Origin: an uncultured Bacteroidales bacterium
GTDB lineage: Bacteria; Bacteroidota; Bacteroidia; Bacteroidales; Paludibacteraceae
Assembly (NCBI GenBank): GCA_900319105.1
Contig: ONND01000008.1
Location: 17,173 to 81,172 of the forward strand
Length of the DNA stretch: 64,000 bases
Reading direction: 5' to 3'
In this document: piece by piece, positions 19,423 through 41,200 of the stretch
Layout of the letters: every line of letters starts with the position of its first letter
How positions within the stretch are numbered: the stretch's first letter is position 1
Program-made: the position numbers and the translations under genes
The notes under the pieces: generated by a model
Told to the model about the DNA's origin: nothing
Databases searched by the model: none
The model's input: the letters and a program-made list of their open reading frames with translations, nothing else

Positions 19423-21216
19423 TTATTGCAAAGGCGTTAATGGATATACCACGTTGACGATGAATATATTCGCCGCAAGGATGATAATATTCATTATCAG
19501 ACCTATCCGCAGGAAATCGCTAAAGCGATATCCACCGGGTCCATAGACGAGCATATGGGTAGGAGAACCTATCGGTGTGGCAAAACTACTGCTGACAGCT
19601 ATCATCAGGGCTATCAAGAAGGGATAGGGTTCGTATCCCAGTTTGACGGCCGCCTCATACATGATAGGAAAGAACATGGCTCCCGCAGCGGTATTGGAGA
19701 TAAACTCCGTGATGAAGGTACCGGCAAAACAAACCGCCGTCATTACCACGATCGGGTTGGTGCCGCATATATCCAATATACCATTCGCCATACGTTCAGC
19801 GATACCTGTTTTCTCGATAGCCAATCCCAGGACGGCACTACAAGCGAACACCATCAATATATCCCAGTTGATGGAGCGCATCGCCTGCTCGGGAGTGCAG
19901 CAACGGAAGATAAGCATCGCCAACACCGCTAAGGTTGCGCATTTGAGCAGTGACATCACGCCAAGCGCAGAAAGCGCCACCATTGCAATCATGATGAAGG
20001 TTGAGACAAAGGTCTTCCAACCAATATTAGGCAGCTCCTCCGAGTCAAAGAAATGCAGATCACGACTTAATGCTTTTGTATCCGTCCGGAACTCGTTCAT
20101 ACTCTCAAGAAGGAGCGTGTCACCGGCTTTGAGCACCACATCCCTCGGCGACTGCTCCAGACGTTTGCCGCGACGGCTGACTGCCACCAAGGTTACTTTA
20201 TTCTCTTTCTCAAATCCGTTTGTCCCCATCGTGGAACCGATGAGATTACTTCCGAAAGTGACATACGCGGTACGCAGCATGTGAGCGTTTCGCTTCACCT
20301 CTTTAAGACTGAATACATGATGAATGGAATTGACCAGTCCATGCGTTTTCTCCAGTTCGAGCAGTTCCGCAATTTGGCCGGCATACACCAGACGATCCCC
20401 GCCCATGACGGGCTCGTCGTCCGGTACGGGTGAGATAATAGATTCTCCGTCAAAATGGCGTATTTCGATAAGACTACCTCCCGCCACCGTGCTGAGTCCG
20501 GCTTCGGCGATAGTCTTTCCTATATTGGGGTTATCCGAAGGAACCAGCATCTCTACCGTGTATTCGCCGGTATCCTCAAATTCCTCCTCAGGAGATTTTC
20601 TATTGGGCAAGAGACGCCTCATGGCGATGATTGAAAGAACGCCGACAGCCAGACAGAACAGCCCCGGAATGGTGGTAGCAAAGATATTCATAGCCTGCCC
20701 TGTTTGTTCCTCATACAGTCCGCTGATAATCAGGTTTGGCGGCGTACCAATCAGGGTACACACGCCTCCCATCCCGGAGGCATAACTAAGCGGAATCAGG
20801 AGTTTTGAAGGCGTTATGCCGAGTTTCTTCGACCACATCTTCACGATGTTCACGAACAGGGCGACAACGGTAGTGTTGCTCAAGAACGAACTCAAAGCCG
20901 CGACAGGCAGCATCAATCGTACCACCGCCTTAGGATATGTTTCCGGAGTACCAAGCAGATTTCTCACTATCCATTGCAGCACCCCCGTGTGAGTCAGTCC
21001 TGCGATAACAACGAACAGCACGCCTACGACCACCACCGAGGTCTGACTGATACCGGAGAGGGCTTCCTTGGTATCAAGGACCCCCGTGACAAACAAAACA
21101 CCTATCGCCATGAGAAAGACGATATCCGAGCGCAACTTGGTAAACAACAGAACGGAGAACATCGTCAGTACCGTTCCGATAGTTATCCAAGCATCCAATC
21201 CAAATCCCAAAAACAT
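19423..21216 (-). CDS. SLC13/DASS family permease with two central TrkA-C domains
   Basis: Multi-TM N- and C-terminal halves flank two soluble TrkA-C-like repeats. The track start at 21231 is TTG, so I prefer ATG 21216. Confidence 0.8.
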   Translation of the reverse strand: MFLGFGLDAWITIGTVLTMFSVLLFTKLRSDIVFLMAIGVLFVTGVLDTKEALSGISQTSVVVVGVLFVVIAGLTHTGVLQWIVRNLLGTPETYPKAVVRLMLPVAALSSFLSNTTVVALFVNIVKMWSKKLGITPSKLLIPLSYASGMGGVCTLIGTPPNLIISGLYEEQTGQAMNIFATTIPGLFCLAVGVLSIIAMRRLLPNRKSPEEEFEDTGEYTVEMLVPSDNPNIGKTIAEAGLSTVAGGSLIEIRHFDGESIISPVPDDEPVMGGDRLVYAGQIAELLELEKTHGLVNSIHHVFSLKEVKRNAHMLRTAYVTFGSNLIGSTMGTNGFEKENKVTLVAVSRRGKRLEQSPRDVVLKAGDTLLLESMNEFRTDTKALSRDLHFFDSEELPNIGWKTFVSTFIMIAMVALSALGVMSLLKCATLAVLAMLIFRCCTPEQAMRSINWDILMVFACSAVLGLAIEKTGIAERMANGILDICGTNPIVVMTAVCFAGTFITEFISNTAAGAMFFPIMYEAAVKLGYEPYPFLIALMIAVSSSFATPIGSPTHMLVYGPGGYRFSDFLRIGLIMNIIILAANIFIVNVVYPLTPLQ

Positions 21217-21241
21217 TATCTCTATTGACAAAAAACGGCTG

Positions 21242-21272
21242 CAAAATTACTGCTTTTTTTCGATATATGCAA
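21242..21272 (-). promoter_or_regulatory. sigma-A type promoter for the SLC13 permease
   Basis: The minus strand reads cTTGcatatatcgaaaaaaagcagTAATTTTGc. It is nearly identical to the promoter at 29654-29684. Confidence 0.7.
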
Positions 21273-21353
21273 GAAAAATCAAAGGATTTTTATACTAATG
21301 TCGAAAGACGCACACCTTGCAGGATGGTTTCGAACAGTATGCTTGCATGTATC

Positions 21354-24300
21354 TTAATCATCGAAGAATCCTAATTGGCTGATAGCGGTTAGCATCCGGT
21401 TGACATAGGCTGTATCGGGTGTGGACCAATGGAAGCCCATACGGAGGAGGACGGCGGAGGTGAAGCGGTTGTTGCGCTCGATAGCGACCGCTTTTTGTCC
21501 GTGTGTCATGTCTTGGTATGCCAAAAGGGCTGACATAAGACTGGCTTTCTTCGGGTCCTGACTGGCATCGAGGATCGCTTGCTGGAACTCCTCATCCTCC
21601 ACATAACGGATGGACTTACCGATCTTATCAAATCCCGCGAGAATATCTCCCAAGAGGTCGGTATGATTGTTAAATGGCTGGAAGACAGTCAGTTCCTTCG
21701 GTGTATGTGCAAGCAGAACAACCGCTTTGGCCGTCTCGTCCACAGGCGAGAACTCCGCCGGCGAGTCGTATTCGTCGATCGGGCAGCAGCCGAGCGTAGA
21801 GAAGACCTTCAAACGTCCCATATAACTGTTCGTCTGGAAATTCGCCTGGAACTCCCCGTCGTAGCTACGCGCCGCGAGGTTACCGACACGCATGATCTTG
21901 GCATTGAGTCCCTGACGCGCCACGGCATCGAGGATGACACGTTCTGCCAAGAACTTAGACCGCATATAGCGGTTGTCGAGGAACTGGCCGAAATAGAGCA
22001 CACGCTCGGTCAGTTCGGGTACCGCCATACCGTCGCCCCTCTCGACCCAGATCTCTCCGACCGACGTAGTGGATATATGTACCAGTCGTGCACCGGTCTT
22101 GAGACAGAACTCCACGCAGCGCTCCGCACCGCCTATATTGACCTGCTCGATATCATCGGTCTTGGAGAAATGCTTCACGTTCGCCGCACAGTTAAAGACG
22201 GTGTTGATAAGACCGCTAACGCTGACAGAGATGTCGCTTGTCACGTCGCCGTTGACGACGAAAAGGCGGGTGCCAAAGAGGTCATCAAAATGGCGGTTGA
22301 AATAATAGAATAGCAAGTTACGCAGACGTCGCTCCGCGTCATGTTGGTCTTTTCCGCGAACAAGACAGGTAATGGTCTTGGCATCGGAGTCGATCAGCTC
22401 GCGCAGAACATGGATGCCTAAGTAGCCGGTAGCTCCGGTCAGGAGGACATTATCCAGTGCACAGAGGGGCGAAGTGCTATGTACAAAGTTCTCCAGGGTG
22501 TTCTTCGCTAAGACTTCATGGATGGCTGAATAGTCGAAATCCTTTTCCTCTTGTTTTTTTTCCTTTGGGTCATTTGAGTCGCCGGACAGGAACTGTGCCA
22601 GGAGACGCGGAGTCGGGTGCGTGAAGATATCACCATAAGCAACGTGTTTGCCGGCCTTGTCCGCCTCGATAATAACGCGGGTGACCATGAGCGACGTACC
22701 GCCCAGTTCGAAGAAATTATCCGTAGCGCCTATCTTATCCTGGTTGAGAATCGAAGCGAAGATATCACAGAAGAGCTTCTCGTTGTCGTTGGACGGCGCT
22801 ACATACTCGCGGTCGGTATCCGTCAGTTGCGGTGCCGGCAGCGCACGTTTGTTCACTTTCTGGTTCTGGTTTAGAGGAATAGCGTCTATCTGCATAGTCG
22901 AAGCCGGTACCATATAAGGCGGCTTGCGGTCGCGGATAAAGGCATTGAGCGTCGGGATGGCGATCTTCACATCGCTGACGATATAGGCGGCGATGAACTT
23001 ACCTCCGTTGGGATAGTCGAAGGCCTGGACGGTAGCGTCCTTGATACCCGGGAACTCACGAATGACCGCTTCTACCTCTTTGAGTTCGATACGGAAACCG
23101 CGGATCTTGACCTGTCCGTCCTGGCGTCCGACAAACTGGATATTACCATCCGGCAGATAACGGACGATGTCGCCGGTGCGGTAGCAGCGGAGACCATTCC
23201 ATTCGATATAAGTCTCGGCGGTCTTGTCGGGACGGTTGAGGTAACCACGGCTGACCTGCGGACCGGAGACGAGCAGTTCGCCTGTCGATCCGACCGGCAC
23301 GCGATGGAGGTCCTGATCGACGATAAAGAGCCGGACGTTATCCAGCGGCTTGCCAATAGGGATGTTCTTCTCCTGCTCATGCATCGGGTACGTCGTGGTG
23401 AAGATAGTACACTCGGTCGGACCGTACGCATTATGGAGTTGGTAGTTAGCCGGCGGCGCAAGGGTCGCGAGTTTCTCTCCTCCGACAGACAAATGGCGGA
23501 GCGAATGGTTGTCGCAGTTCTGCGCGAACTGGTAGCCGACCTGCGTGGTCATGAACGAATGGGTGATACCTTCCGCCTCGAAATAATGATTCAGGTCAGG
23601 CAGGTTCAGACGGATATCCTCGCCGATAATATAGACGGCGGCACCACACGTCAGCGCCGGGTACATATCCATCATGTTCGCATCGAAGCCGTACGAAGCA
23701 TATGCCGCTACCTTGTCTCCGGCATGGAGATCGTAGTAGCGCTGGTACCAATGGCAGAACGCCACGAGATTGCGGTGCTCCAACTGGCATCCTTTGGGCA
23801 CGCCCGTCGAACCGGAGGTATAAAGCAAGATGAATAAATCTTCCGGATGTATATTGGTGATTTTTAATTTGTCATTTGTTACTTGTAATGACTCTAACTC
23901 TTTGGTGAGCAGAACCGGTCCCTCATATTTGTTGACGATAGCACGAAGGTCTTCATCCGCAATAAGGAGAGTGGCATTCGCATCCTTCATCATGAAGTTC
24001 AAACGCTCTGCCGGATAAGACGGATCGAGCGGCTGATAAGCACAGCCGGCTTTGAGAGCCGCCAAGGAAGCGACCACCATCCATTCGGAGCGGTTGATGA
24101 GGATCGATACAACCGGTTCTTTCTTATCATTACCGATGACCTCTTTGATACGCGCCGCGATCGCGTCCGTACGCGCATCCACCTCTTTATAAGTGAGTCG
24201 CGTGTCATGATAGACAACGGCGATGTTATCGGGTGTCTCAGCCGTCTGGCGACGGAAGAGAGAGACGATGGTCTGGGTGTCGTCATACGGCACTTCGGTC

Positions 24301-27248
24301 TGGTTGAAAGAATCGAGTATTGCTGTCTGCTCCTCGTTGAGGAGCGAGATAGACCGCAGAGGCGCGTTCGTGTTCGCAGCGAAAGCCTGAACTGCGTTCG
24401 CCACCGACTGAGCGAGGTTGGTGATGAGTGCATCGCTGTACCATCCATTATCGAACTCAACGGCTATACTCGGTACGCCGTCCATCGGCATGATATAGAA
24501 CGCTATCTTGAACTTCGGTACGTTCTGCTCCATGGTCTCGTCGGCGAAGACGGGTTTGCCAAAGACGGAGTAATTGCTCAACACGCCCATCTGGTAAGCG
24601 AACATGATCTCCGCCTTGAGGTCGTAGTCCGCGGATACGCGTGCAAACGGATAGTCCTCATGCGAGAGGGTCTGCTCGAAATTCTGCGCGTTCTCCTGGA
24701 TGAACTCCTCTACCGTCTGGCTCGCTATCTTAGCGGTAAGGGCGAGGGTGTTGACGAACATACCCATGGTGTTATTAACCCGCAGGTTGCTTCGTCCGTT
24801 GGAGATGGTAGTGATGCACACCTGCTCTGTGCCGGCAAAGCGGGCGAGAGCATAATAGACTGCACTGAGCAGCACCGCAGCGGGTGTCACGCCTAACTGC
24901 GCGGCATATTTCTCCGCCGTGTTCATATCGAACGGTACGCACACACGTCCGTTCTCTCCTTGCGGCAGGGCGTTGGTGAGGTCAGGTTGGATCTCAGTGA
25001 CGCTCTCTACGCCGGCGAGATGCTCTGCGAAGAAAGCCTCAGCCTTCTTGAACGCCTCCCCTTCTTGAGCCGCTTTCTGCTCCGCCACGAACTGAGGATA
25101 AGAGCACATCTCCGGCTCTATCTCACGGCCTTCGAGCAGGTCGCATAGCTCGTGAATGAAGAGGTCATAGGAGGCTCCGTCGCAAACGAGGTGGTGTATA
25201 TCGCTAAGGAGGTACACGTTCTTCATCGTGCGGACGATAGCGAAGCGGAAGAGCAGGTCTTTCGACAGATTGAACGGTCGTACGAACTCATGCTTGAAAG
25301 CGTCCATCTGCGACTCATCGAGTGTCTGTTCGGGGATATTGATATTCGCCTCGTTCATCTGTTGGGTATCGATGGTCTGGATAACATCGGCCTCTTGCGT
25401 AGCAAAATGCACAAAGAGCTCGGAATGGTTGAGCACCGCTTTGCGTACCGCCTGACGCAGGGCTTCCGTCTCCACCTCTAACGGCATCTGGGTGCAGATC
25501 GGCACGTTATAGAGCGTCGAGGTCGGGTTCTTCATACACTCGAAATAGACACCCATCTGAGCAAAAGAGAGGCCTACCCCCGTCCCCTCCCTAAAAGGAG
25601 GGGTGGTTTGTGCGTCGCTTTCTCCCTTCCCTTTAGGGGAGGGTTGGGGAGAGGCTACTAGTTCCTTCAATATCTCATTCTCAATAGCCTGCAGCGTGAT
25701 ACCTTTGGTCATCTGTTTGGCGTCGAGTTGGACTCCGAAACGCTTGAACACTTGGGTGGCTAACTTAATGGCGGCGATGGAGGAGAGACCCATATACCGC
25801 AGGTCGGTCGTGATACCAAAATCCTCCATGTTGACGATCTTCGCAATGATGTCATGCAGTTCCTGCTCCAAGACATTGAGCGGCGCCGCAGCGGCGGTTG
25901 TCTCTGCTTCGGGTTTCGGTGCTTCGGGCTTCGGCAGGGCCCGTTTATCCACTTTCTGGTTCGGATTAAGGGGTATCTTGTCTATCTGCATCGTCACGGC
26001 AGGCACCATGTAAGGCGGTTTGCTGTCGCCGATAAACGCATTGAGTTCATCAATATTGATGGTCTGGTCGCTGACGATATAGGCAGCGATGAACTTACCG
26101 CCGTCAGGATAGTCGAAGGCTTGTACCGTCGCATCTTTGATGCCGGGGAACTCACGGATGATCGCTTCCACCTCTTTGAGCTCGATACGGAAACCACGTA
26201 TCTTGACTTGTCCGTCCCGCCTGCCGACGAACTCGATATTACCGTCCTCGCGGTAGTGGACTATATCGCCGGTCCTATAACAGCGTAAGCCGTTCCACTC
26301 CACAAAGACCTCCGCGGTCTTCTCCGGCTGGTTGAGGTAACCGAGCGATACCTGCGGACCGGCTACATACAGTTCGCCGTCTGAGCCGGTAGGCACTTCC
26401 TTGCCGTCCTGACCGACGACGAAGAGTTGTGTACCGTTCGTATTGGCTTTGCCTATGGGGATGTTGGGTTCGTTCTGCGTGACAAAGAAACTGCTGACAT
26501 AAACCGTACACTCCGTCGGACCATAGCAGTTCATGAGTTGGTATTGAGGCGGGTCAAGACTAATGAGTTTCTCGCCGCCTGTTCCGAGCCATTGCAAGCC
26601 CGGTATTTCGGGATAATTGAGCACAAGCTGGGTGGCCATCTGGGTGGTCATGAAGCAGTGGGTGATGTGCTCGTCCTGGATATATTGGTTGAGTCCCTCC
26701 AGGTCAAAACGGATCTCGTCGCCCACAATACAGATCGTGGCACCAGCCTGAACGCAGGACCATAGGTCCATCTGGAAGGCATCAAAACCATACCCGGCAT
26801 AGGTGGCGTACTTGCTTTGCGGGGTCAAGCCGATGGCCTGAATATGAAAATCCAGGAATGCCATGAGGTTCGCTTCGCTCAACATGACACCTTTGGGAAC
26901 ACCGGTCGTGCCGGAGGTATAAAGCAGTACGAATGCCTCGTTACCGTCATACTTAGAAGCATCTTCGCGCATGTAGTTCAGTCGCTCTTCTGGATAGGTT
27001 CCGTCGAGCGGCATAGCGGTCAGGCCTGCCTTAGCGATCGCGAGGGGGACAAGTACCATTAGTTCATTACGGGGCACGATGAACGCTGCCACTTTGTCGC
27101 CGCAACGGGTGACGTACTGCGGATCGAGGGTGTCTGACAGACGGTCCGCCTCGGCGAAGGTAATTCGTTTGTCTCCTGCGATGCAGAAGATGTCGTTCGG
27201 CCGCTCGGCAACGTGTTTCTTGAAGTATTCGACTACGTGTTTCATCAT
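21354..27248 (-). CDS. dimodular non-ribosomal peptide synthetase, A-T-C-A-T-R (terminal thioester reductase)
   Basis: 1964 aa. A1: LLYTSGTTGVPKG, YRTGD, KIRGFRIEL. T1: YMGLSSIAA. C: HHLVCDG (about 25178-25198). A2: LLYTSGSTGVPKG, YRTGD. T2: LGGTSLM. R: LLTGATGYLG, an SDR fold running to the C-terminus. Confidence 0.95.
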   Translation of the reverse strand: MMKHVVEYFKKHVAERPNDIFCIAGDKRITFAEADRLSDTLDPQYVTRCGDKVAAFIVPRNELMVLVPLAIAKAGLTAMPLDGTYPEERLNYMREDASKYDGNEAFVLLYTSGTTGVPKGVMLSEANLMAFLDFHIQAIGLTPQSKYATYAGYGFDAFQMDLWSCVQAGATICIVGDEIRFDLEGLNQYIQDEHITHCFMTTQMATQLVLNYPEIPGLQWLGTGGEKLISLDPPQYQLMNCYGPTECTVYVSSFFVTQNEPNIPIGKANTNGTQLFVVGQDGKEVPTGSDGELYVAGPQVSLGYLNQPEKTAEVFVEWNGLRCYRTGDIVHYREDGNIEFVGRRDGQVKIRGFRIELKEVEAIIREFPGIKDATVQAFDYPDGGKFIAAYIVSDQTINIDELNAFIGDSKPPYMVPAVTMQIDKIPLNPNQKVDKRALPKPEAPKPEAETTAAAAPLNVLEQELHDIIAKIVNMEDFGITTDLRYMGLSSIAAIKLATQVFKRFGVQLDAKQMTKGITLQAIENEILKELVASPQPSPKGKGESDAQTTPPFREGTGVGLSFAQMGVYFECMKNPTSTLYNVPICTQMPLEVETEALRQAVRKAVLNHSELFVHFATQEADVIQTIDTQQMNEANINIPEQTLDESQMDAFKHEFVRPFNLSKDLLFRFAIVRTMKNVYLLSDIHHLVCDGASYDLFIHELCDLLEGREIEPEMCSYPQFVAEQKAAQEGEAFKKAEAFFAEHLAGVESVTEIQPDLTNALPQGENGRVCVPFDMNTAEKYAAQLGVTPAAVLLSAVYYALARFAGTEQVCITTISNGRSNLRVNNTMGMFVNTLALTAKIASQTVEEFIQENAQNFEQTLSHEDYPFARVSADYDLKAEIMFAYQMGVLSNYSVFGKPVFADETMEQNVPKFKIAFYIMPMDGVPSIAVEFDNGWYSDALITNLAQSVANAVQAFAANTNAPLRSISLLNEEQTAILDSFNQTEVPYDDTQTIVSLFRRQTAETPDNIAVVYHDTRLTYKEVDARTDAIAARIKEVIGNDKKEPVVSILINRSEWMVVASLAALKAGCAYQPLDPSYPAERLNFMMKDANATLLIADEDLRAIVNKYEGPVLLTKELESLQVTNDKLKITNIHPEDLFILLYTSGSTGVPKGCQLEHRNLVAFCHWYQRYYDLHAGDKVAAYASYGFDANMMDMYPALTCGAAVYIIGEDIRLNLPDLNHYFEAEGITHSFMTTQVGYQFAQNCDNHSLRHLSVGGEKLATLAPPANYQLHNAYGPTECTIFTTTYPMHEQEKNIPIGKPLDNVRLFIVDQDLHRVPVGSTGELLVSGPQVSRGYLNRPDKTAETYIEWNGLRCYRTGDIVRYLPDGNIQFVGRQDGQVKIRGFRIELKEVEAVIREFPGIKDATVQAFDYPNGGKFIAAYIVSDVKIAIPTLNAFIRDRKPPYMVPASTMQIDAIPLNQNQKVNKRALPAPQLTDTDREYVAPSNDNEKLFCDIFASILNQDKIGATDNFFELGGTSLMVTRVIIEADKAGKHVAYGDIFTHPTPRLLAQFLSGDSNDPKEKKQEEKDFDYSAIHEVLAKNTLENFVHSTSPLCALDNVLLTGATGYLGIHVLRELIDSDAKTITCLVRGKDQHDAERRLRNLLFYYFNRHFDDLFGTRLFVVNGDVTSDISVSVSGLINTVFNCAANVKHFSKTDDIEQVNIGGAERCVEFCLKTGARLVHISTTSVGEIWVERGDGMAVPELTERVLYFGQFLDNRYMRSKFLAERVILDAVARQGLNAKIMRVGNLAARSYDGEFQANFQTNSYMGRLKVFSTLGCCPIDEYDSPAEFSPVDETAKAVVLLAHTPKELTVFQPFNNHTDLLGDILAGFDKIGKSIRYVEDEEFQQAILDASQDPKKASLMSALLAYQDMTHGQKAVAIERNNRFTSAVLLRMGFHWSTPDTAYVNRMLTAISQLGFFDD
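23866..23900. repeat. AT-rich period-7/8 array inside NRPS module 2
   Basis: aatttgtc atttgtt acttgta atgactc taactc. Encodes LQVTNDKLKITNI between the A2 and A3 core motifs. Resembles the reverse complement of the AAATGACC family. Confidence 0.7.
25572..25656. repeat. pair of GC-rich hairpin elements in the NRPS T1-C linker
   Basis: cccctcc-ctaaaa-ggagggg (25584-25603) and ctcccttccc-ttta-ggggagggttggggagag (25622-25653). Encodes SPQPSPKGKGESDAQTTPPFREGTGVG. Confidence 0.85.
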
Positions 27249-27257
27249 GGGGGGGGG
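27249..27257. repeat. G9 (C9 on the coding strand) homopolymer abutting the NRPS start codon
   Basis: Positions 27249-27257 are all G. The NRPS ATG is the complement of 27246-27248. The STAS stop is at 27268-27270. Confidence 0.95.
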
Positions 27258-27267
27258 TAGGTTTGAT

Positions 27268-27570
27268 TTATTCGATGGTGAAGATGTTTTGGAAACCGCT
27301 CATGCGGAAGATGTCATTGACGTCCTCATTGAGGTGGGTGACGCGGATAGAACCGCCTTTCGCCTCGGCCTCCCGCTTGAGTTGCATGAAGAAGCGCAGG
27401 CCCGCGGAAGAGATATACTCCAGCTGGGTGCAGTCGATCTCCAGCGCTTGGTCCGTAAGCGCCAGCACTTGGTTGAGTTCATCTACTTGGTTCGTCGTCG
27501 CCGTCGTGTCCAACTCGCCGATAAGGCAAACACGCGTCTCTTGGTCATTCGGTTGAATAGTGATGTTCAT
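27268..27570 (-). CDS. STAS-domain protein (anti-sigma-factor antagonist, SpoIIAA/RsbV-like)
   Basis: 100 aa from ATG 27570. LEYISSAGLRFFMQL contains the conserved phosphorylatable Ser context. Lies 4 nt after the upstream stop. Confidence 0.85.
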   Translation of the reverse strand: MNITIQPNDQETRVCLIGELDTTATTNQVDELNQVLALTDQALEIDCTQLEYISSAGLRFFMQLKREAEAKGGSIRVTHLNEDVNDIFRMSGFQNIFTIE

Positions 27571-27574
27571 ATTT

Positions 27575-29632
27575 TTAATGATTGGTGGATTGATTAATGG
27601 TGACCAGGTTGACCTGCTTAATGGTGGAAGCGAGCGTGAGGATATTCTCCCCTTCTTTCCGATCGTAGTGCATTTCATCGACGATCTGGCGGATGAGCGA
27701 GATCCCCAGACCTCCCACTTGCCGTTCGTCGGTCGCTTTGGTATTCGGTATATGCGCTGTGGGGTCAAAGGGGATTCCATCGTCCGCGAGGGTTAGGATC
27801 AGGCATTGGCTATTGGCTATTGGCTTTTGGCTATTTTTTATTGTTAGCCCCATTTTGATTTCGGTGGCCTGCGAGTAATGAAGAATATTGACCACTGCTT
27901 CTTCCGCTGCGACCTCAAACTGCTTGAGGGCTCTTTTCTCCATGCCGGCACAAAGACCGAACGTGTGTATAGCCCGTTTCATAACCGGCCACTGATCCTC
28001 GTGGCAGGTCACACACATCGTCATCGGCTGAACAGGACTTGTCTTGCGGATGGTCATGAGGGTGATATCATCCGTAGGTTCGGCTTTGCCGATGAACCGG
28101 CGGATCGATTGGTGCAGGTCCTCGCCGGTCGCCACGATCTCCGTCCATCGCTTGAGCCCTAACATCTCCCGTGCTTCATTACGCGCCTCGGTCACGCCGT
28201 CTGTATAGAGGACAAGCGTCTCTCCTTCATCAAGCATACAACCCTGCTCTACAAAACGATACCCGCCGTCGTAGCCCAGAGGGATGTTCGGCTCCATCTG
28301 AATACTGATAACTGAATCCTGACTACTGATAATCGGTGCACAATGACCGGCATTGCAGAACAGCAGTTCCCCGGTAGGAATGTGTAAACATCCGATAAAA
28401 GCCGTCACGAACGTCAGGGAGGGATTATTCTCGCTAAGAATGGCATTCATCTCTTCCATGATTTCTTTTGGAGAAGTAGCACGCACTCCTGCTGCGCGGA
28501 AGAGGTTCACTGCGGCACTCATGAAGATAGCAGCCGGAACACCTTTGCCGCTTACATCGCCGATGATGAACCATAGCTCATCTCCTTCGCGGTGAAAATC
28601 ATATAAGTCTCCTCCCACTTCTCGCATCGGAACCAAGAGCGTTTGCAGTTCGATATCGCCGTTGCCTTGGGCTTTTTGCTTCTCGTTAGTATCTTTCAAA
28701 ATACCCATTTGGATGTCATGGGCGATCTGCAGTTCATGCGACAACACCTTTTTCTCCGTCTCCAGGCGGGCGTTCTCACGCTCGTCACGCGTCATCCTAC
28801 GAATCAACAAACCCACCACAAAGATGCCTAACACAAACACGCCAAACGACAACAAAGTGCCTAAACGGAGAGATTGAATAATATGACGTTTCGGAACGGC
28901 AGTCACCATTTTGATGTTGATTGGTTGAAGGGTCTTGCTCGTGATGATCCAACTATTGCCAAACCCGTCCGCAGGTGCTCCTTCACTCGCCGCCAAAAGG
29001 GCCCCGTTGGAACTATAGAGCATGAACACCGCCTCTTCGAAGGGCTTGAACTGATCCAGCAAGTTGTGGATCCATTTCAGACCGAAATCAATTCCTATGA
29101 CGCAAATCAGTTTTCCTTCTTCATCCCGCATGGCCTTTGAATAGGTGTAGATTGGTTCATCAAAATCATCATCCCTATAAGGCGTACTCCAATACCCCTC
29201 CGTGCTTTGTACGGCTCCTTTGTACCACTCACGCTCAAAATAATCATGCTCGGCATCACCAAAGATACCGGAGATGATCGTGTCCTTTGTGCGGTAGGAG
29301 GTCAGTTCAAACCATTTTCTGAGAGGATAATAATACGGTGGAAAAGCTACATAGCAGGAATAAAAATTCGGATAGCGGTTGAGGAGTTCGCTTGTCTTGT
29401 CGTACAATTCATCCGGGTGCTTCAGGCACTTTTTCACTTTTTCTGCTATCTGGGAACTGGCATCCAGCGCATCGTACAGTTCAAAACGTAGTTTCTCCTG
29501 CGCAATCTGCATCTCCAGATCCATCTTCTCCTGCAATCGGAACCGGGTCCTGCTATAAGAGACATACGCTTGCACTCCTAATCCGACAAGGAGAAAGAGC
29601 GCAGCGATGATATGTAACTTATATCGTCTCAC
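27575..29632 (-). CDS. membrane sensor fused to a PP2C (SpoIIE/RsbU-type) phosphatase and an RsbW-like HATPase kinase
   Basis: 685 aa, GTG start. TM1, then an extracytoplasmic Cache-like region of about 230 aa, then TM2. PP2C motifs VGGDLYDF, IGDVSGKGVPAA, LYTDGVTEA. C-terminal HATPase_c boxes EEAVVNILHY, DDGIPFDP, GGLGISLIRQI. Confidence 0.85.
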   Translation of the reverse strand: MRRYKLHIIAALFLLVGLGVQAYVSYSRTRFRLQEKMDLEMQIAQEKLRFELYDALDASSQIAEKVKKCLKHPDELYDKTSELLNRYPNFYSCYVAFPPYYYPLRKWFELTSYRTKDTIISGIFGDAEHDYFEREWYKGAVQSTEGYWSTPYRDDDFDEPIYTYSKAMRDEEGKLICVIGIDFGLKWIHNLLDQFKPFEEAVFMLYSSNGALLAASEGAPADGFGNSWIITSKTLQPINIKMVTAVPKRHIIQSLRLGTLLSFGVFVLGIFVVGLLIRRMTRDERENARLETEKKVLSHELQIAHDIQMGILKDTNEKQKAQGNGDIELQTLLVPMREVGGDLYDFHREGDELWFIIGDVSGKGVPAAIFMSAAVNLFRAAGVRATSPKEIMEEMNAILSENNPSLTFVTAFIGCLHIPTGELLFCNAGHCAPIISSQDSVISIQMEPNIPLGYDGGYRFVEQGCMLDEGETLVLYTDGVTEARNEAREMLGLKRWTEIVATGEDLHQSIRRFIGKAEPTDDITLMTIRKTSPVQPMTMCVTCHEDQWPVMKRAIHTFGLCAGMEKRALKQFEVAAEEAVVNILHYSQATEIKMGLTIKNSQKPIANSQCLILTLADDGIPFDPTAHIPNTKATDERQVGGLGISLIRQIVDEMHYDRKEGENILTLASTIKQVNLVTINQSTNH
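27804..27838. repeat. period-7 array (TATTGGC x5) in frame in the kinase domain
   Basis: cattggc tattggc tattggc ttttggc tattttt. Encodes NSQKPIANSQC between the N-box and the G1-box. Confidence 0.9.
28302..28336. repeat. period-7 array (NNACTGA x5) in frame in the PP2C domain
   Basis: atactga taactga atcctga ctactga taatcgg. Encodes PIISSQDSVISIQ. Confidence 0.85.
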
Positions 29633-29653
29633 GGATCATGGTATTTTGCGCTG

Positions 29654-29684
29654 CAAAGGTACTGCTTTTTTTCGATATATGCAA
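29654..29684 (-). promoter_or_regulatory. sigma-A type promoter for the sensor phosphatase-STAS-NRPS gene string
   Basis: The minus strand reads tTTGcatatatcgaaaaaaagcagTACCTTTGc with a 20-nt spacer. The -7 box ends 22 nt before the GTG at 29632. Confidence 0.75.
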
Positions 29685-29701
29685 ATTTTTCTTTAAAAAA
29701 T

Positions 29702-30220: not shown

Positions 30221-30252
30221 TTTGCATATATCAGAAAAAAGCAGTAATTTTG
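30221..30252 (+). promoter_or_regulatory. sigma-A type promoter for tRNA-Leu
   Basis: TTTG (30221-30224), N20, TAATTTTG (30245-30252). Divergent from the DUF2147 promoter. Confidence 0.7.
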
Positions 30253-30301: not shown

Positions 30302-30387
30302 GCCGCGATGGTGGAATAGGTAGACACGAAGGACTTAAAATCCTTTGGCCAGTGATGGCTGTGCCGGTTCGACCCCGGCTCGCGGTA
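30302..30387 (+). tRNA. tRNA-Leu (anticodon UAA), type II with a long variable arm
   Basis: Acceptor GCCGCGA/TCGCGGT (G1-U72 wobble). D arm GTGGAATAGGTAGACAC. Anticodon stem AAGGA/TCCTT with loop CTTAAAA. Variable arm GGCCAGTGATGGCT. T arm GCCGG-TTCGACC-CCGGC. Confidence 0.9.
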
Positions 30388-30400
30388 CTAACTACACACA

Positions 30401-30428
30401 GAACATGAGCAATCATGTTCTTTTTTTT
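30401..30428 (+). terminator. rho-independent terminator after tRNA-Leu
   Basis: GAACATGA-gcaa-TCATGTTC followed by T8. Confidence 0.85.
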
Positions 30429-35256: not shown

Positions 35257-38200
35257 ATGAAGATAGGTAAAGGCAATTTTACAACCGTATTCAAAGGGTT
35301 GTGTTTTTCGGTAGTTATTTTTATGCTCGCGGGTATATCCGTACGCGCGTACAGCGATGATACGCCCGGAGGCGGCGCAAAGGCGCCGACGGCGGGCGGT
35401 TATGTGGATGACCCGACGGCTAACGTACCGACCAATGCGTATGTGACGTTCTCCACGCTGTATAATGGTCATCGTTATTATCTGGGTGTAGATACGGTTC
35501 TTGCCAAGTCCGGCAAAGATACCGTCACTTACTACGAGGGAGCCAACTACGCGACTATGTGGATCGCCGGACCGATGTGGAGTCCGACGGGTAATGTATT
35601 ACCGACCAAGGATTATACCCGTACCGTCCAGAGCGTTTGGCTGAAAGAGAAAGTCGGCCGTAATAAATATCTGGCGCTCGGTACCGGTTCCGGTACGTAT
35701 AACACCTTGCGTCTGTTGGAGACCGGAACGATGTGGCACACGGAGAAAGACGACCGCGAGCCGAGCAAGTATATCAACGGTTTCCTGTATTATTACTCCG
35801 ATGCTACGGGTGTGGACGTATATCGCTATTTGCGGTATGACCCTGTCTACGGCTTCAGCCGTTTGTACGAGACCAAGCCTGCTAACTCGCAGCGTATCTC
35901 CGTATGGGACCGCAAGACGGGCAGCGACCTGATCTTCGACGTCCAGCCGAGAACACTGACTGCGGGTTATGAGACCAACAATCATGACACGACCAAGTAT
36001 CCTATTACCTCAAGGGTGATCTACTACGAGAACGTCGATCGTTTCCGCAGCCGTTTCGACCATACGGATGTCTATGCCGCGCAGAGTACGCCTATCACCG
36101 ATCAGAGAGTCTTAGCCGATCCGGACGGAGCCTATAAGCTCTTCGGCTACTACGAGTGGCAGTCGAACCCGACAGTCAATTCGGAGAATATCCCTGCCTA
36201 CAACGGCAAGTCCTGCATGAAAGTATGGAAGCCTGTTTTGCAACTCATAGACGGCGGCGATCCCGAGGACCCCGAGGACTACGAGGTGGTGGAGCAGTGG
36301 GGCGATTCGACCATGTTCTACGTGAGCGAGACCCGTTTCAAACTGGACGAGGCGACCAATATATGGCACGACACGGTGTATGCCATCGGAAGCGCGCCGA
36401 TTGACAGGACGGAGTGCCATTTCCTGCGCAAGCGAGGCGAGGGCGCACCGACGGCAGGCGACTACGCCAACCACAACGACTGGCTGTACGTGAAGTTCCA
36501 ATGCAAGGGCGTACACTACGTGGACTCGATCATGGTCTCCCGTCACACCTTCCACAACGCGCCGTTCACGACCATGACGATGAACAGCACCCCGAGCGAC
36601 CATACTTTCCCTTACACCCATAATAATACATTAGTAGGCGGAACAGCTATCAGCACAACCGACACCGCTAAAGTCTTCACCATCCGAGCAAGTTACAAAT
36701 CCGGTAACACGGTTTATAATGCCGTGAATGCCCCTGTGGACCGCTATATAGGTGAGAATGTGCCGGACATGAACCTCACCAAATACAGCGGACACGAGGA
36801 GGAGGGCGTATGGTACGACTCGCTGCAGGTGACAGCCGTTCTGCCGGACGGTACTCCGGCTATCGTAGGAGCCGAAGGAGCCGGGGAGGGAGCATGGATT
36901 GAGTCCGTGCGCCTGACCGCAAAAGACAAGATATGCGTCAAGGTATCGCAGTCCGCCCCGGAGGTGAACGCTAACCGCGTAGCACAGATAACCTACACAT
37001 ACCGCTACTGGCACTCCTCGGCAGAGGGAGACCAAGTGACCGCTAATAATAGCATTTGGGTTGTACAAGAGTGGAGTGGCGCACATGATGACGAACTATA
37101 CTCTTTCTACCATAAGGACAGCACCGATAACCTGCAAGGCGTGCATGAGCGCAAACGGACCATCTATATCACCCCGGGCGATGAACTCGCACTGCGTCTG
37201 CACCGTGACCACTGGGGCTACTACCGGTGGTATGACTATGATAATGACCGAGACATAGAGAACGACGGAGCATGGAGTTACGAGGTGGAACCCAAGAACC
37301 ATAAAGGTGACAAGTTCATGCCCATCAATATCACCACCTCCCCCACCTCGCGCGGAAGATGGGACATCAATATAGACAACCACTTCACGCTCAACACCGC
37401 TACACCCGAGCCGGTGATCAAGAACGAAAATCCCGCTACGCAATCCATCAAGGTAGCGTGCGACGTGAGCGCGTATAAAAATATAAAACATGAGGGCGAG
37501 ATAGGCGTCTCGTTGACATCTGTAACCGAACCGACGCTCTCTTACCGCCAGGTTTTTGATATCCAGCCCGCCAAGACGCAGGCGGACAAGATGGCTAACT
37601 GCCGCGGCGACGGCAGCGGGGCCAACTGGTTTGAGCAACGTACCATCATTGCTCCTATCAACAGGGAGCTGACTTTCACACCGAGCTACCCGATTGCAGC
37701 GGGCGTTTCCTCTGATATCGAACCGATGTACGAGGAGGACGAGTTGCAGTATATCTACTATTTCAACACTTCTAACATGGGAGTAATCCAAGGGGAAGGA
37801 AAAAATGATAAAGCCGAATACTTCAGTCGGATAGGTACTAAACGCAAAGTAGGTTCCAAACACCTTCAATTACTGACTTACGACTATATAAAGGACAATC
37901 TGGAAGATAATAAGAACTATACTGTCCTATTAGTAAACCCTCGGGCTAATCAAGGTTATGCACTCGGCTATAAATACAATGGTTTTAACTATTCACAATG
38001 GGCGGCTGAAGACAATCAAGAAGCATTGAAAGCATGGCTGACTGACAATACGATGAATCAATCGGCATATCAACTTACCATGCAAAAAAATGGAAATCAC
38101 ATGACCCTTGCGCGTGGTTCTAATGTTTTAACAGTAAACCGTGCTTCTGCTTTTTCTGACTACTGGGATATGGAATGGGGACAGAGTCACTTATGGGCAG

Positions 38201-41200
38201 CCGGAACAGAGATCACCTATTCTGCATACAATCCTTCTACTTCATTAAATGCTTCCGGATATGAGGGGGCAATGGTAAGATTATATATGGAGTATACTAA
38301 AAAGTTCTTAGGAATGGGAGCTACAGTAAAAGGATATTTACATGCCAAGAACGCCGAGGGAACTTCAAATAATTTCCATATTGTGGACAACATGCGTTTA
38401 GATGGAGATGAGATAAATGATGCATGGGTGTTCTATCTAATTGTAGATGACGGAGAAACATTTTACGAGACCCCGGCGTGGTACATGAGTACGGATAACA
38501 GCTCGTGGACCAAAGTGTCGCATTGGGACTATTCCAAGAATGCAAGCGTGACCGATGTTGCCGGCTATTCGATGCGTCCGGACGGCTCGCTTGTTATCGC
38601 GGACAGCAAACTGGGCACTGCCGATCAGACTATTTACTACCAACTCCGTACCGAGCATTTCCAGTTGGCTAAGATTACCCTTCTCACCAGGGACCCGAAT
38701 AAAGAAGGTCCTAAGGCGGGTGCCGGTTCCATTATCTCCGAGGACGAGATAGAGAACCACTACACCGTCCTCTACGACTTAGGAATGAGCACTTGGACGG
38801 CTCCCAACACCACGGAGATCAAGGCATACTACCACCATTTCCCGTGGAACTTCACGGAGTTCAGTTACCACTACCCGCTCTCTGTCATTAACAGTACCTA
38901 CCGCGACTCGGTAACCGAGATGCCGATGAAAGGCGAATACGCGTTCCTCAATAAGTTCAAAGTGCCGCACGGCGGTAAGAACACCGGTAATCCCGATGCG
39001 GAGTTTGAAGCCCTCGCCGGCGCAAAGAACGGTTACATGCTCTGTCTCAATGCCGACAACAAACGCTCTACTATCATGCGTTTCGAGTACCCAGCGCTGA
39101 CCTGTTCGAGCCAGAAGATTTACTTGGTAGCGGACCTCTGCAACCCCGTCAAGAACTCTTTCTCCCCGCAGATTACTGCTGACTTGGAGGGAACGAAAGA
39201 CGGCGGTGAAACATGGGAGACGATCTACCGCTTCAAGACCGGTAAGATCCCCTATGACGAGGAGCATGTGTGGTACCAGTTTGCGCTGCCTATCGATCGC
39301 GAACATGTCAAGGGGTATGACTATTTCCGCTGCACGGCGATGTTGGACGGAGCAACGAACAAGAACGCGCACCTGCTCATCGACCGCCTGCGGTTCATCG
39401 AGAAGTCGCGTACCTTCAATGTCTTCCAGAACAAGATCGAGTGCGTGCAGACCGATAGTGTGACCGCACTCATCCGTCTGAACTACAAAGCCGACACAGA
39501 TCTCTATAAACCGGGTATGCTCGTAGCGTACCAGTTCCAGAGATGGGACGCCTCTGCCAATGATGGCGCAGGCGGCTATGTGCCCATGAATAGCAGTACC
39601 GGTAAAAACGATTCGGTGCAACCGGGATATATCAAAGATGCCTTCACCGTACGGGAAGGTATGACGCACCTTAAAACCTCTGCCGGCTATGACTACGGCT
39701 ATGTCATGGTGCCGGAGGCGGATTATGATCCGAGCCTGAGCAATAACACGGGGAAACAGTCCGTTAAGCGAGGCGAACTGATAGATGCCGCTTTAGAGAA
39801 ACTGGGTATAACCGGCGATGAGGCAAACACGCGTAAAACACAATTCCTGAACGAGAAAGGAAACGTAAGTACCATTGATGAGATTATCAGCGGCGGTTCT
39901 ATTGATTTCGGTACCGCCTCCACACCGCATATCAAGTTCTTCGTCAAGGAAGGGAATGACTGGGTTATCTACCTTGCCTGCCGCCTGCCTATAGCGGCTA
40001 CGGCTAACAAAACCTTCCGCATCGGTATGACGATGATGGACAACCTGGACGATACACCTACCTTCACGGAGAGTTCGTGCGCTACCTTCCATATCCTGAA
40101 AATCAAGAATGCCACTACCTTGAAAGTCGATGGCGAGGATTGGACCAACCACTCACGCGACGAGATCAACGCCGATAATGAGCGCGGCGACGCGCTCAAG
40201 CCCCTTGCCGCCAACGAGACCTACCGCGCATCAGTGACCTTCGATCCGAACGTCCCGGGTGCGACGAACATACACTGCCGCTTTGACCTGCTGCGTGTGG
40301 ATGAGGGTGAACGTGGCCAAGCCGCTACCGATAAGTGGTGGACGGATAACTACGGCTGCACCCGTGCGCAGTTCTTCGATATGATGACGACCTTCCGTAT
40401 AGATGACGAGGACAACCCTATGCGTAATGTCACCAACTGGAACGATGTCAAGCCCTCCGATTTTGAATGGTCAGGACGTACGCCGGAGATTGCCCGTAAG
40501 ATATACAACACGCTCAACAAACTGATCGTCACCGACCGCAAATTAGAGATCGGTCTGGAGTACCGCGATATCTATCTGGGCAATGCGCAAGACGGCTATT
40601 TCTACCTCATCCCCATGCCCGCGAGCGGCACGTATTCGCACGACGGAAAAAGTTTTAACGCCACCGTCTGCAACAACCCCTTGTGGCTGGAGCTGCATAC
40701 CGGCACTTCGGCTTATTCGCTGCGCTTCGGCTATGACAGCAAGGTGGGCGATAGTTATATCGTGCCCGTCATCCGTGCCTCCAAGACCGATGCCAACAAC
40801 CACCTGAAAGTGCGCATCGCCGATATCACGCATGCGGCTACCGCCGGCGTGGTAATCGGTTGGGACTCCACGTATGTCATTGAGTCCAACGACCCGGGAT
40901 GGAATAGCACCAAGACCTTCCGCTACCACCAGGACCGTATTGTACAGGACGACCTCTATGATAACTACTACAAAGTACCGGCTGAGGGCGAAGCGGATAT
41001 GGATAACCACTATATCACCTTCACTCCGGTCAATGCCACCTATATCGCCCGCCTCACCAATACCGACTGCAACTGCTACGACTACGACCCCGCCGGTACG
41101 GTATATAACTACAATAAGTCCAACAAGGAATTCACCGACAACGCTGCCGGCGTATTCAAGACCCCGACAACACCGACTGAGGGTTGCAACGAATGGCTCG

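Follow-up and report, generated by a model that had tools for sequence, protein, structure and literature searches.

A candidate built-in partner switch in an AusA-like nonribosomal peptide synthetase cassette of an uncultured Bacteroidales bacterium

Among the closest described counterparts of the gene cassette analyzed here is the SypE/SypA pair in the syp polysaccharide locus of Vibrio fischeri, a partner switch whose output is not a sigma factor and lies below the level of transcription (PMC8256260, PMC4517449). The cassette was found in a DNA stretch of 64,000 nt, hereafter the window, from an uncultured Bacteroidales bacterium of the Paludibacteraceae (GCA_900319105.1, ONND01000008.1, positions 17,173-81,172 of the forward strand). 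Its three genes encode a sensor fused to a PP2C phosphatase and an RsbW-like kinase, a STAS protein, and a dimodular nonribosomal peptide synthetase (NRPS). As in SypE/SypA, the RsbW-like kinase and the PP2C domain are in one protein, the STAS protein has a single domain (the SypA serine is Ser56), and both are encoded within a biosynthetic locus. SypE is cytoplasmic and has a central REC input, whereas the window sensor has a periplasmic dCache domain between two transmembrane (TM) helices, no REC domain according to Pfam, and the order PP2C then kinase. In addition, SypE/SypA belong to a polysaccharide pathway, whereas the window module belongs to an NRPS pathway in Bacteroidota, where one related locus (L161; loci are designated by L numbers) has a REC::PP2C variant. 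By analogy, the window module appears to work like SypE while standing outside the SypE family.

The RsbU/RsbV/RsbW and SpoIIE/SpoIIAA/SpoIIAB switches of Bacillus have the same three activities and the same position of the STAS phospho-serine. Unlike in these switches, the phosphatase and kinase of the window are fused and membrane-anchored, no sigma factor lies near, and the conserved partner is an NRPS. In Mycobacterium tuberculosis, Rv1364c is a cytoplasmic protein with a PAS input and its own STAS domain, and I know of no NRPS context for it. Rv1364c and the window sensor both carry PP2C and an RsbW-like kinase in one polypeptide, and Rv1364c (3ke6) is the nearest solved relative of the window fusion (E=7e-15). 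There are also precedents for an enzyme-level output. The unphosphorylated STAS-like component SiaC of the SiaABCD system of Pseudomonas aeruginosa acts directly on the diguanylate cyclase SiaD (PMC8457831), and in HenR/All4160 of Anabaena, also a partner-switch-like system, the unphosphorylated STAS-like component acts directly on a glycosyltransferase (PMC13555669). The target enzymes of both systems differ from an NRPS. With the SiaA model, whose cut-off is 700 bits, the window phosphatase gives a weak match of 27 bits, and the STAS domain is fused to the enzyme in All4160, whereas it is free-standing in the window.

On the biosynthetic side, AusA (the aureusimine synthetase) and the dipeptide-aldehyde NRPSs of gut commensals share with the window NRPS the A-T-C-A-T-R order of adenylation (A), thiolation (T), condensation (C) and reductase (R) domains as well as reductive release (for the chemistry, see PMC8210680). 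These AusA-type families have been described with a phosphopantetheinyl transferase (PPTase; ausB) and without a partner switch, whereas the window lacks a PPTase. The nearest functional hints are TciK/TciR of Vogesella indigofera, in which an RsbW-like-domain protein regulates the NRPS-made pigment indigoidine (PMC12826045), and hcyA-D in Nostoc (PMC9127174). TciR combines REC and RsbW-like domains in a host that lacks an RsbV/STAS homologue, no PP2C or Cache domain has been described for it, and it came from transposon genetics, not as a conserved component of a cluster. The original prediction for this locus stated that partner switching wired to an NRPS was not known to its author. Likewise, a full-text literature search found no report tying SpoIIE, STAS or partner switching to a Bacteroidota NRPS cluster, the cluster diagrams of Guo et al. 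2017 being outside its coverage, and an NRPS-linked switch is also absent from a survey of biosynthetic clusters in the rumen (PMC8241843) and from a review on STAS-only proteins (PMC8256260). Non-sigma outputs of partner switches are already known; it is the form embedded in an NRPS cluster that appears to be new, as a well-supported lead and not a proven mechanism.

The cassette consists of three minus-strand ORFs in the order sensor fusion (685 aa), STAS protein (100 aa) and NRPS (1964 aa). The coordinates and spacings originally predicted were reproduced exactly from the ORF list and the sequence: the junction of the sensor and STAS genes reads TAA-AAAT-ATG with a gap of 4 nt, and that of the STAS and NRPS genes reads TAA-N19-ATG with a gap of 19 nt. 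A Bacteroidetes-type promoter at 29654..29685 on the minus strand, with a -33 element TTTG and a -7 element TACCTTTG, lies about 20 nt 5' of the GTG start codon of the sensor gene and follows the -33/-7 consensus as TTTG-N19-TAccTTTG. The full pattern TTTG-N17-23-TAnnTTTG has five matches in the 64 kb against 0.81 expected by chance, and a sigma-70 scan of the window gave no excess. On the minus strand between 21250 and 29259 there are zero TAnnTTTG -7 boxes, and hence none before the STAS gene or the NRPS gene, which agrees with the earlier claim that a lone consensus promoter precedes the trio. The GTG start of the sensor gene is supported because the N-terminal TM helix is conserved in homologues, which begin with ATG at this position. 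The three genes presumably share one transcript.

The sensor fusion gene occupies 27575..29632 (coordinates of cassette features are on the minus strand). A hydropathy scan placed TM helix 1 at residues ~4-26 (29555..29623), which is conserved in homologues, and TM helix 2 at residues ~256-279 (28796..28867), within a hydrophobic segment at ~251-280. The predicted periplasmic dCache ectodomain lies between the helices at residues ~27-255 (28868..29554) and has the pocket residues R134-x-W136, Y152-x-D154 and D182. In Pfam, its residues 80-216 score 62.4 bits with MCP-like_PDC_1 (cut-off 27) and 37.7 bits with dCache_1 (cut-off 45), and the sequence matches of the ectodomain in the PDB are dCache sensors. 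The PP2C domain of the SpoIIE family follows at residues 350-529 (28046..28585; Pfam E=2.5e-42), with the motifs VGGD at 339-342, GDVSGKG at 358-364, YTDG at 476-479 and DD at 521-522. The C-terminal domain is an RsbW-like GHKL serine kinase (HATPase_c_2, residues 550-667, 27632..27985; Pfam E=2.4e-15) with an N box EE577-578..N582, a G1 box D618xG620 and a G2 box GGxG at 640-643, and it weakly matches the NCBIfam model RsbA_anti_sig. Fifteen full-length relatives, the most distant at 27% identity, show no variation in the metal-site motifs of PP2C or in the N, G1 and G2 boxes of the kinase, and across 37 NRPS-linked homologues the conservation of these motifs is 95% or higher. In distant members, the Cache domain falls to 17-24% identity while PP2C holds 37-44%, a pattern that would be expected for a ligand-binding input.

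The STAS protein (27268..27570; Pfam STAS E=1e-13) is of the anti-sigma-antagonist type and scores 63.2 bits with TIGR00377, the anti-sigma-antagonist model, whose cut-off is 53.45. Assignment as an MlaB-type STAS protein was rejected (28 bits with the mlaB model against a cut-off of 90). Ser55 (codon 27406-27408), the second serine of ISSAGL, aligns with the phospho-serine of RsbV (6m36) and is invariant in 42/42 NRPS-linked STAS proteins, within the motif LEYI[AS]S[SA]GLR. Phosphorylation of Ser55 would be the control point. The partner-switch triad is complete with its catalytic motifs intact. The conservation of Ser55 and of the phosphatase and kinase motifs is consistent with purifying selection on the switch. 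The module fails the classical definition of a partner switch on one point, the lack of a linked sigma target. As first proposed, no sigma factor or transcription factor is near: Pfam analysis of the flanking ORFs in the window found none within ~8 kb on either side, and none was found in related cassettes, although a target may be encoded elsewhere in the genome, beyond these 64 kb.

The NRPS gene (21354..27248) encodes A1-T1-C-A2-T2-R, with two AMP-binding domains, two PP-binding domains, a Condensation domain and a NAD_binding_4 domain in Pfam. These are A1 at residues ~1-432 (25953..27248; nine pocket-code positions DAMFGGCVY), T1 at residues ~455-530 (25659..25886; PP-binding in Pfam), C at residues 560-976 (24321..25571; Pfam Condensation E=1.5e-59), A2 at residues ~998-1470 (22839..24257; nine pocket-code positions DAMFSGAIF), T2 at residues 1493-1554 (22587..22772; Pfam) and a terminal SDR reductase at residues 1603-1964 (21357..22442; Pfam NAD_binding_4 E=9e-33). 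The core motifs are intact, namely the A3 motif LYTSG(T/S)TGVPKG at 109 and 1142, HHLVCDG at 685, GATGYLG at 1605 and YxxxK at 1761, and both carrier-protein serines are present (GLSS at 487 and GGTS at 1516). The reductase also has the family motif NCAANVKHF at 1686, which is common to all relatives. The best NCBIfam match of the NRPS is AusA (NF047350) with 1136.8 bits against an equivalog cut-off of 2500, and the NRPS is thus of the AusA architecture class but not an AusA orthologue. With this type of reductase, release is expected to give an aldehyde, and from the architecture only, the product would be a dipeptide aldehyde able to cyclise to a pyrazinone. The C-terminal parts of A1 and A2 (25932-26367 and 22836-23271) have 79-80% DNA identity at a spacing of 3096 nt, which suggests module duplication or gene conversion inside the NRPS gene. 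Overall, the predicted TM-Cache-TM-PP2C-RsbW fusion, STAS protein with ISSAGL and A-T-C-A-T-R NRPS were borne out, the domains by Pfam and the TM helices by hydropathy.

Is the module found with the NRPS in other genomes? I scanned metagenomes with the reductase domain and obtained 80 loci with 57-93% identity. As the sample names suggest, they come from ruminant and other gut assemblies, and the contigs have no taxonomic assignment. The 43 loci that have 2.5 kb or more of sequence ahead of the NRPS start were taken as informative. In 39/43 (~90%) of them, partner-switch genes lie just upstream of the NRPS gene: both sensor and STAS in 37, STAS only in one, and sensor only in one, while neither was found in four. 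In these NRPS-centered loci, the switch genes and the NRPS gene are all on the same strand, and the gap between the sensor and STAS genes has a median of 21 nt. The gap between the STAS and NRPS genes is 1-132 nt in 22 loci and ~1.4 kb in 20 loci, where it holds a gene for an Alginate_exp-like porin. A strict -7 box was found in the 160 nt before the sensor gene in 12/26 loci, but in the 200 nt before the NRPS gene in only 3/42. Genes beyond the core are unrelated from locus to locus. The varying outer flanks serve as an internal control against simple inherited synteny. In a homologous trio with 80, 90 and 89% identity (sensor, STAS and NRPS), the neighboring genes differ on either side and the DNA upstream is variable. 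A sensor with 93% identity has the same context as in the window.

The reverse scan used a sensor alignment against one genome per species and reached distant relatives. Among the matches listed, 6/80 loci are NRPS-linked, each with a different gene order or fusion. In a rough neighbor-joining tree, whose deep branches are unreliable, the NRPS-linked sensors form two main Bacteroidales clades plus a Firmicutes case, and the nearest neighbor in this crude identity-distance tree is also NRPS-linked for 42/45 NRPS-linked sensors. The original prediction had allowed that the adjacency might be confined to this genome or due to chance. Instead, the pairing goes beyond one genome and beyond chance in both directions of search, with 39/43 NRPS loci and 6/80 distant sensor loci among those listed, and the trio recurs while the flanks change.

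The linked genes are found in several types of arrangement. The fullest cluster is sensor-STAS-porin-NRPS(C-A-T-C-A-T-R)-MatE-PPTase, and many relatives of the NRPS carry an extra starter C domain. Among related loci, a MatE gene follows the NRPS gene in 31, SNF symporters occur in 11, and a PPTase in 12. L011 has the order sensor-STAS-porin-NRPS, L012 has NRPS-sensor-STAS, and in L061 the NRPS gene is divergent from sensor-STAS. L083 has an NRPS gene, a Cache-PP2C gene overlapping the NRPS stop codon by 4 nt, a STAS gene and a PPTase gene. In the Firmicutes locus L051, TM-PP2C-kinase and STAS genes have the NRPS gene on the opposite strand. L096, L097, L114 and L149 have a free-standing kinase and STAS, L059 has NRPSs, a MatE::kinase fusion and Cache-PP2C, and L155 has STAS then MatE::kinase. 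L161 (204-12950) has NRPS-MatE-SLC13/CitMHS-STAS-kinase-REC::PP2C and appears, from its domains, to be an unfused, response-regulator-driven version of the switch. The MatE fusions carry the RsbW-like HATPase_c_2 domain at their C-termini inside NRPS clusters (L059 7278-9071, L155 340-2112), and proteins of similar length in the Firmicutes loci L044 and L062 cluster with them.

A few other variations were observed. Symporters of the SNF family (sodium:neurotransmitter/amino-acid) occur in L001 (9597-10004), L086, L096, L097, L101, L102, L108 and L126, and that of L001 is a 135-aa fragment with a 4-nt overlap with the sensor start codon. In L152 (1-3774), McrBC-type restriction genes are at the usual position of the sensor gene, and the STAS gene is kept before the NRPS gene. 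L164 (2-3757) has tandem reductase-terminated NRPS genes with STAS and porin genes between them.

Which ligand might the sensor bind? The pocket residues R134, W136, Y152, D154 and D182 of the window sensor are in register with K149, W151, Y167, D169 and D196 of the Campylobacter jejuni isoleucine receptor Tlp3, which I take to be the ligand-contacting, amino-acid-binding residues of that receptor, and the chain-index offset is constant at 36. The ectodomain aligns to Tlp3 (4xmq) with E=2e-4 and weakly to PctA of P. aeruginosa with E=0.5. Tlp3 and PctA have the output of a methyl-accepting chemotaxis protein, whereas the output of the window sensor is PP2C/kinase and its ligand binding is a prediction. 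The corresponding signature of PctA is R126, W128, Y144, D146 and D173 (PMC9540692). The full pocket pattern is kept in the window-type clade only, that is, in the window and in L001, L005, L086-L091, L112, L116 and L123. Since this pocket matches the residue pattern of amino-acid binders, an amino-acid-like ligand is favored for the window sensor, and I tentatively propose that the ligand may be an amino acid or a close analogue.

The operon-like packing and the deep linkage, conserved in both directions through rearrangement and domain shuffling, are plain from these loci. On these grounds, the module very likely serves the NRPS pathway, and I favor, with some reserve, the reading that the cassette-embedded partner switch is a built-in regulator of an AusA-like dipeptide-aldehyde/pyrazinone NRPS. 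In the proposed mechanism, the periplasmic dCache domain would bind a small ligand, and the ligand state would be relayed across the membrane to change how strongly the PP2C and RsbW-like kinase domains of the fusion act relative to each other. These two domains would set the phosphorylation state of STAS Ser55. The unphosphorylated STAS protein, or else the kinase domain, depending on whether STAS occupies it or leaves it free, would then act on a non-sigma target encoded inside the cluster, most likely the NRPS itself, which ranks first as the target because it is the sole partner always present. In this way the production of the dipeptide aldehyde, cyclisable to a pyrazinone, would be gated. 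Post-translational action of the module on the NRPS is an attractive possibility that I would hold only tentatively. A still more specific form of it is somewhat doubtful: the STAS protein or the kinase domain might bind the NRPS directly in a phospho-regulated and loosely MbtH-like manner, switching synthesis without new transcription, and this would be the first partner switch with an NRPS output, in a large rumen/gut Bacteroidales family.

Several observations weigh against a built-in regulator of this kind. First, four of the 43 informative NRPS loci (L101, L126, L131 and L132) are module-free, with an SNF symporter, or RelA/SpoT and an arabinofuranosidase, upstream of the NRPS gene. Since many of the 43 loci are related, the locus counts are not independent events. 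Second, among the matches listed in the sensor-centered scan, the majority of sensor-STAS pairs with 25-36% identity lack an NRPS within 10 kb. These NRPS-free pairs often adjoin a RelA_SpoT small alarmone synthetase, an APH-like phosphotransferase and an HD_4 hydrolase (L008 12329-14813; also L009, L010, L015-L018, L024, L037 and L064), which hints at (p)ppGpp metabolism as a second enzyme-type output for the module family. The sensor-STAS module is thus generic, and its output may therefore be set by unlinked factors. Third, the kinase::MatE fusions are a hint that the exporter is an alternative target. Fourth, the R-x-W half of the pocket is absent in the larger clade of sensors, and, with NRPS divergence taken into account, the Cache domain and the A-domain code showed no specific co-variation. 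Finally, the PPTase, MatE exporter and porin of related clusters have no homologue anywhere in the 64-kb window. The window carries the minimal three-gene form of the cassette, and the activity of its NRPS therefore depends on a PPTase gene elsewhere.

The alternative that survives best is a transcriptional route. In this case, the RsbW-like domain would sequester a sigma factor or transcription regulator encoded elsewhere, and the dephosphorylated STAS protein would free this regulator, which would then activate the promoter of the cassette, as positive autoregulation, and might activate further genes. The NRPS would be controlled only via its mRNA. The RsbU/V/W and SpoIIE/AA/AB switches classically work in this way, and the route suits a STAS protein that passes the anti-sigma-antagonist model. 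The presence of the sensor-STAS family beside many unrelated genes also fits a trans-acting output, and an ORF upstream in the L096 cluster has weak Pfam matches to Zn-ribbon/HTH-like domains. On the other hand, no such regulator is encoded near the window cassette or the related cassettes, and sigma-B/F-type factors are not known from Bacteroidales. Moreover, regulators produced only once the operon is already transcribed would make an awkward on-switch, and the linkage survives many rearrangements, including the placement of the module between the NRPS and PPTase genes. I consider this route unlikely, though worth keeping in view.

It is also conceivable that the switch gates a transporter (MatE, SNF, SLC13 or porin) for the product or its precursors, in the sense of export or self-protection, and not the synthetase. 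The kinase domain fused to MatE in L059 and L155, the MatE genes after the NRPS gene and the SNF symporters in related loci agree with this, and STAS domains regulate transporters in the SulP/SLC26 and MlaB systems (PMC8256260). However, genes for MatE, a porin or an SNF symporter are absent from the window-type cassette, and the NRPS is the only invariably present partner. As for SLC13, the window has an SLC13/CitMHS-TrkA_C transporter gene (Pfam; 19423..21231, minus strand) downstream of the NRPS gene, and a similar transporter occurs within the NRPS cluster of L161. The gene has its own promoter-like site at 21242-21273, and homologues with 82-84% identity were found in three other contexts without an NRPS or a sensor. 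Thus, the transporter is probably a neighbor outside the cassette, and gating of transport is improbable.

A comparably improbable alternative is autoinduction, in which the Cache domain would respond to a secreted product of the cluster itself, the pyrazinone or dipeptide aldehyde, or to autoinducer-2 (AI-2), so that sensor and NRPS form a quorum-sensing-like synthase-receptor pair. The sensor and the synthase are in one apparent operon, as for many autoinducer systems. In the rumen, dCache_1 serine phosphatases were suggested to be AI-2 receptors on the strength of the matching five-residue signature (PMC9540692). In addition, the divergence of the Cache domain follows that of the NRPS (r=0.60), and with PP2C+kinase distance controlled for, a partial Mantel test related Cache distance to the A-domain code (r=0.31, p=0.0005). 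However, R-domain distance explains the A-domain code better (r=0.55), and when it is controlled for, the partial correlation of Cache and code is about -0.02 by hand calculation, so that sensing of the product by the Cache domain gains no specific support. Furthermore, the pocket pattern is that of alpha-amino-acid binders, whereas a dipeptide aldehyde or pyrazinone has no free carboxylate.

The weakest alternative, that a general stress-signaling pair merely happens to lie beside an NRPS, draws on a widespread sensor-STAS family most of whose members have no NRPS neighbor, but it is very improbable and essentially excluded by the synteny data, because the module stands in nine tenths of the informative NRPS loci while the flanks differ, the association survives changed order, orientation and domain fusion, my rough upper bound (assuming one randomly placed NRPS per genome) is ~0.5 of ~46 Bacteroidales sensor loci with an NRPS within 10 kb against 5 observed, and sensor identities down to 25-30% argue against one recently spread element.

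The neighbors of the cassette are housekeeping genes. According to Pfam, the flanking ORFs encode SecDF, ClpP, ClpX, the SLC13/CitMHS transporter, DUF2147, DUF386, glycogen branching enzyme, a thioredoxin-like protein and others. ClpX and ClpP fall into 90%-identity protein clusters named Paludibacteraceae. A search for an empty site via the SLC13 homologues (82-84% identity) gave unrelated contexts, and no orthologous empty site was recovered; all that these contexts show is that the transporter can occur independently of the NRPS. A plasmid origin was also considered, and the plasmid collection gave no match. A tRNA-Leu gene (anticodon TAA; 30302-30388, plus strand) lies between the DUF2147 and DUF386 genes and is followed by a terminator-like hairpin at 30400-30421. 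The exact 23-nt string GCATATATCGAAAAAAAGCAGTA is present in both the promoter of the sensor operon (29660-29682, minus strand) and that of the SLC13 gene (21248-21270, minus strand). A third copy with two mismatches (30224-30246, plus strand) drives the tRNA-Leu gene, and other promoters of the window resemble the string. The repeat was considered as a possible insertion scar flanking the cassette. Given the copy before tRNA-Leu and the similar promoters elsewhere in the window, it is more likely the strong promoter consensus of this genome, while it could also be a sign of co-regulation or a duplication from insertion of the cassette. A 2693-aa ORF at 35257-43338 on the plus strand has no Pfam match at E<=0.001.

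What would a built-in switch mean for these bacteria? NRPS clusters are abundant in Bacteroidales of the gut and rumen, with 934 reported in rumen Bacteroidaceae (PMC8241843), and the literature searched says nothing about the conditions that turn them on. Gut commensals make related dipeptide aldehydes that inhibit host proteases (summarized in PMC8210680). The linkage described here points to an undescribed control of a microbiome natural product. A conserved sensor in the cluster offers a handle on it, with a candidate class of ligand, a Ser55 residue by which the pathway might be locked on or off, and a route of activation for product discovery. The fusions and rearrangements, such as the free kinase, MatE::kinase and REC::PP2C, form a comparative series for finding the direct target of such STAS proteins. 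For signaling biology, non-sigma partner switching would be extended by this module to a further class of output and to another phylum.

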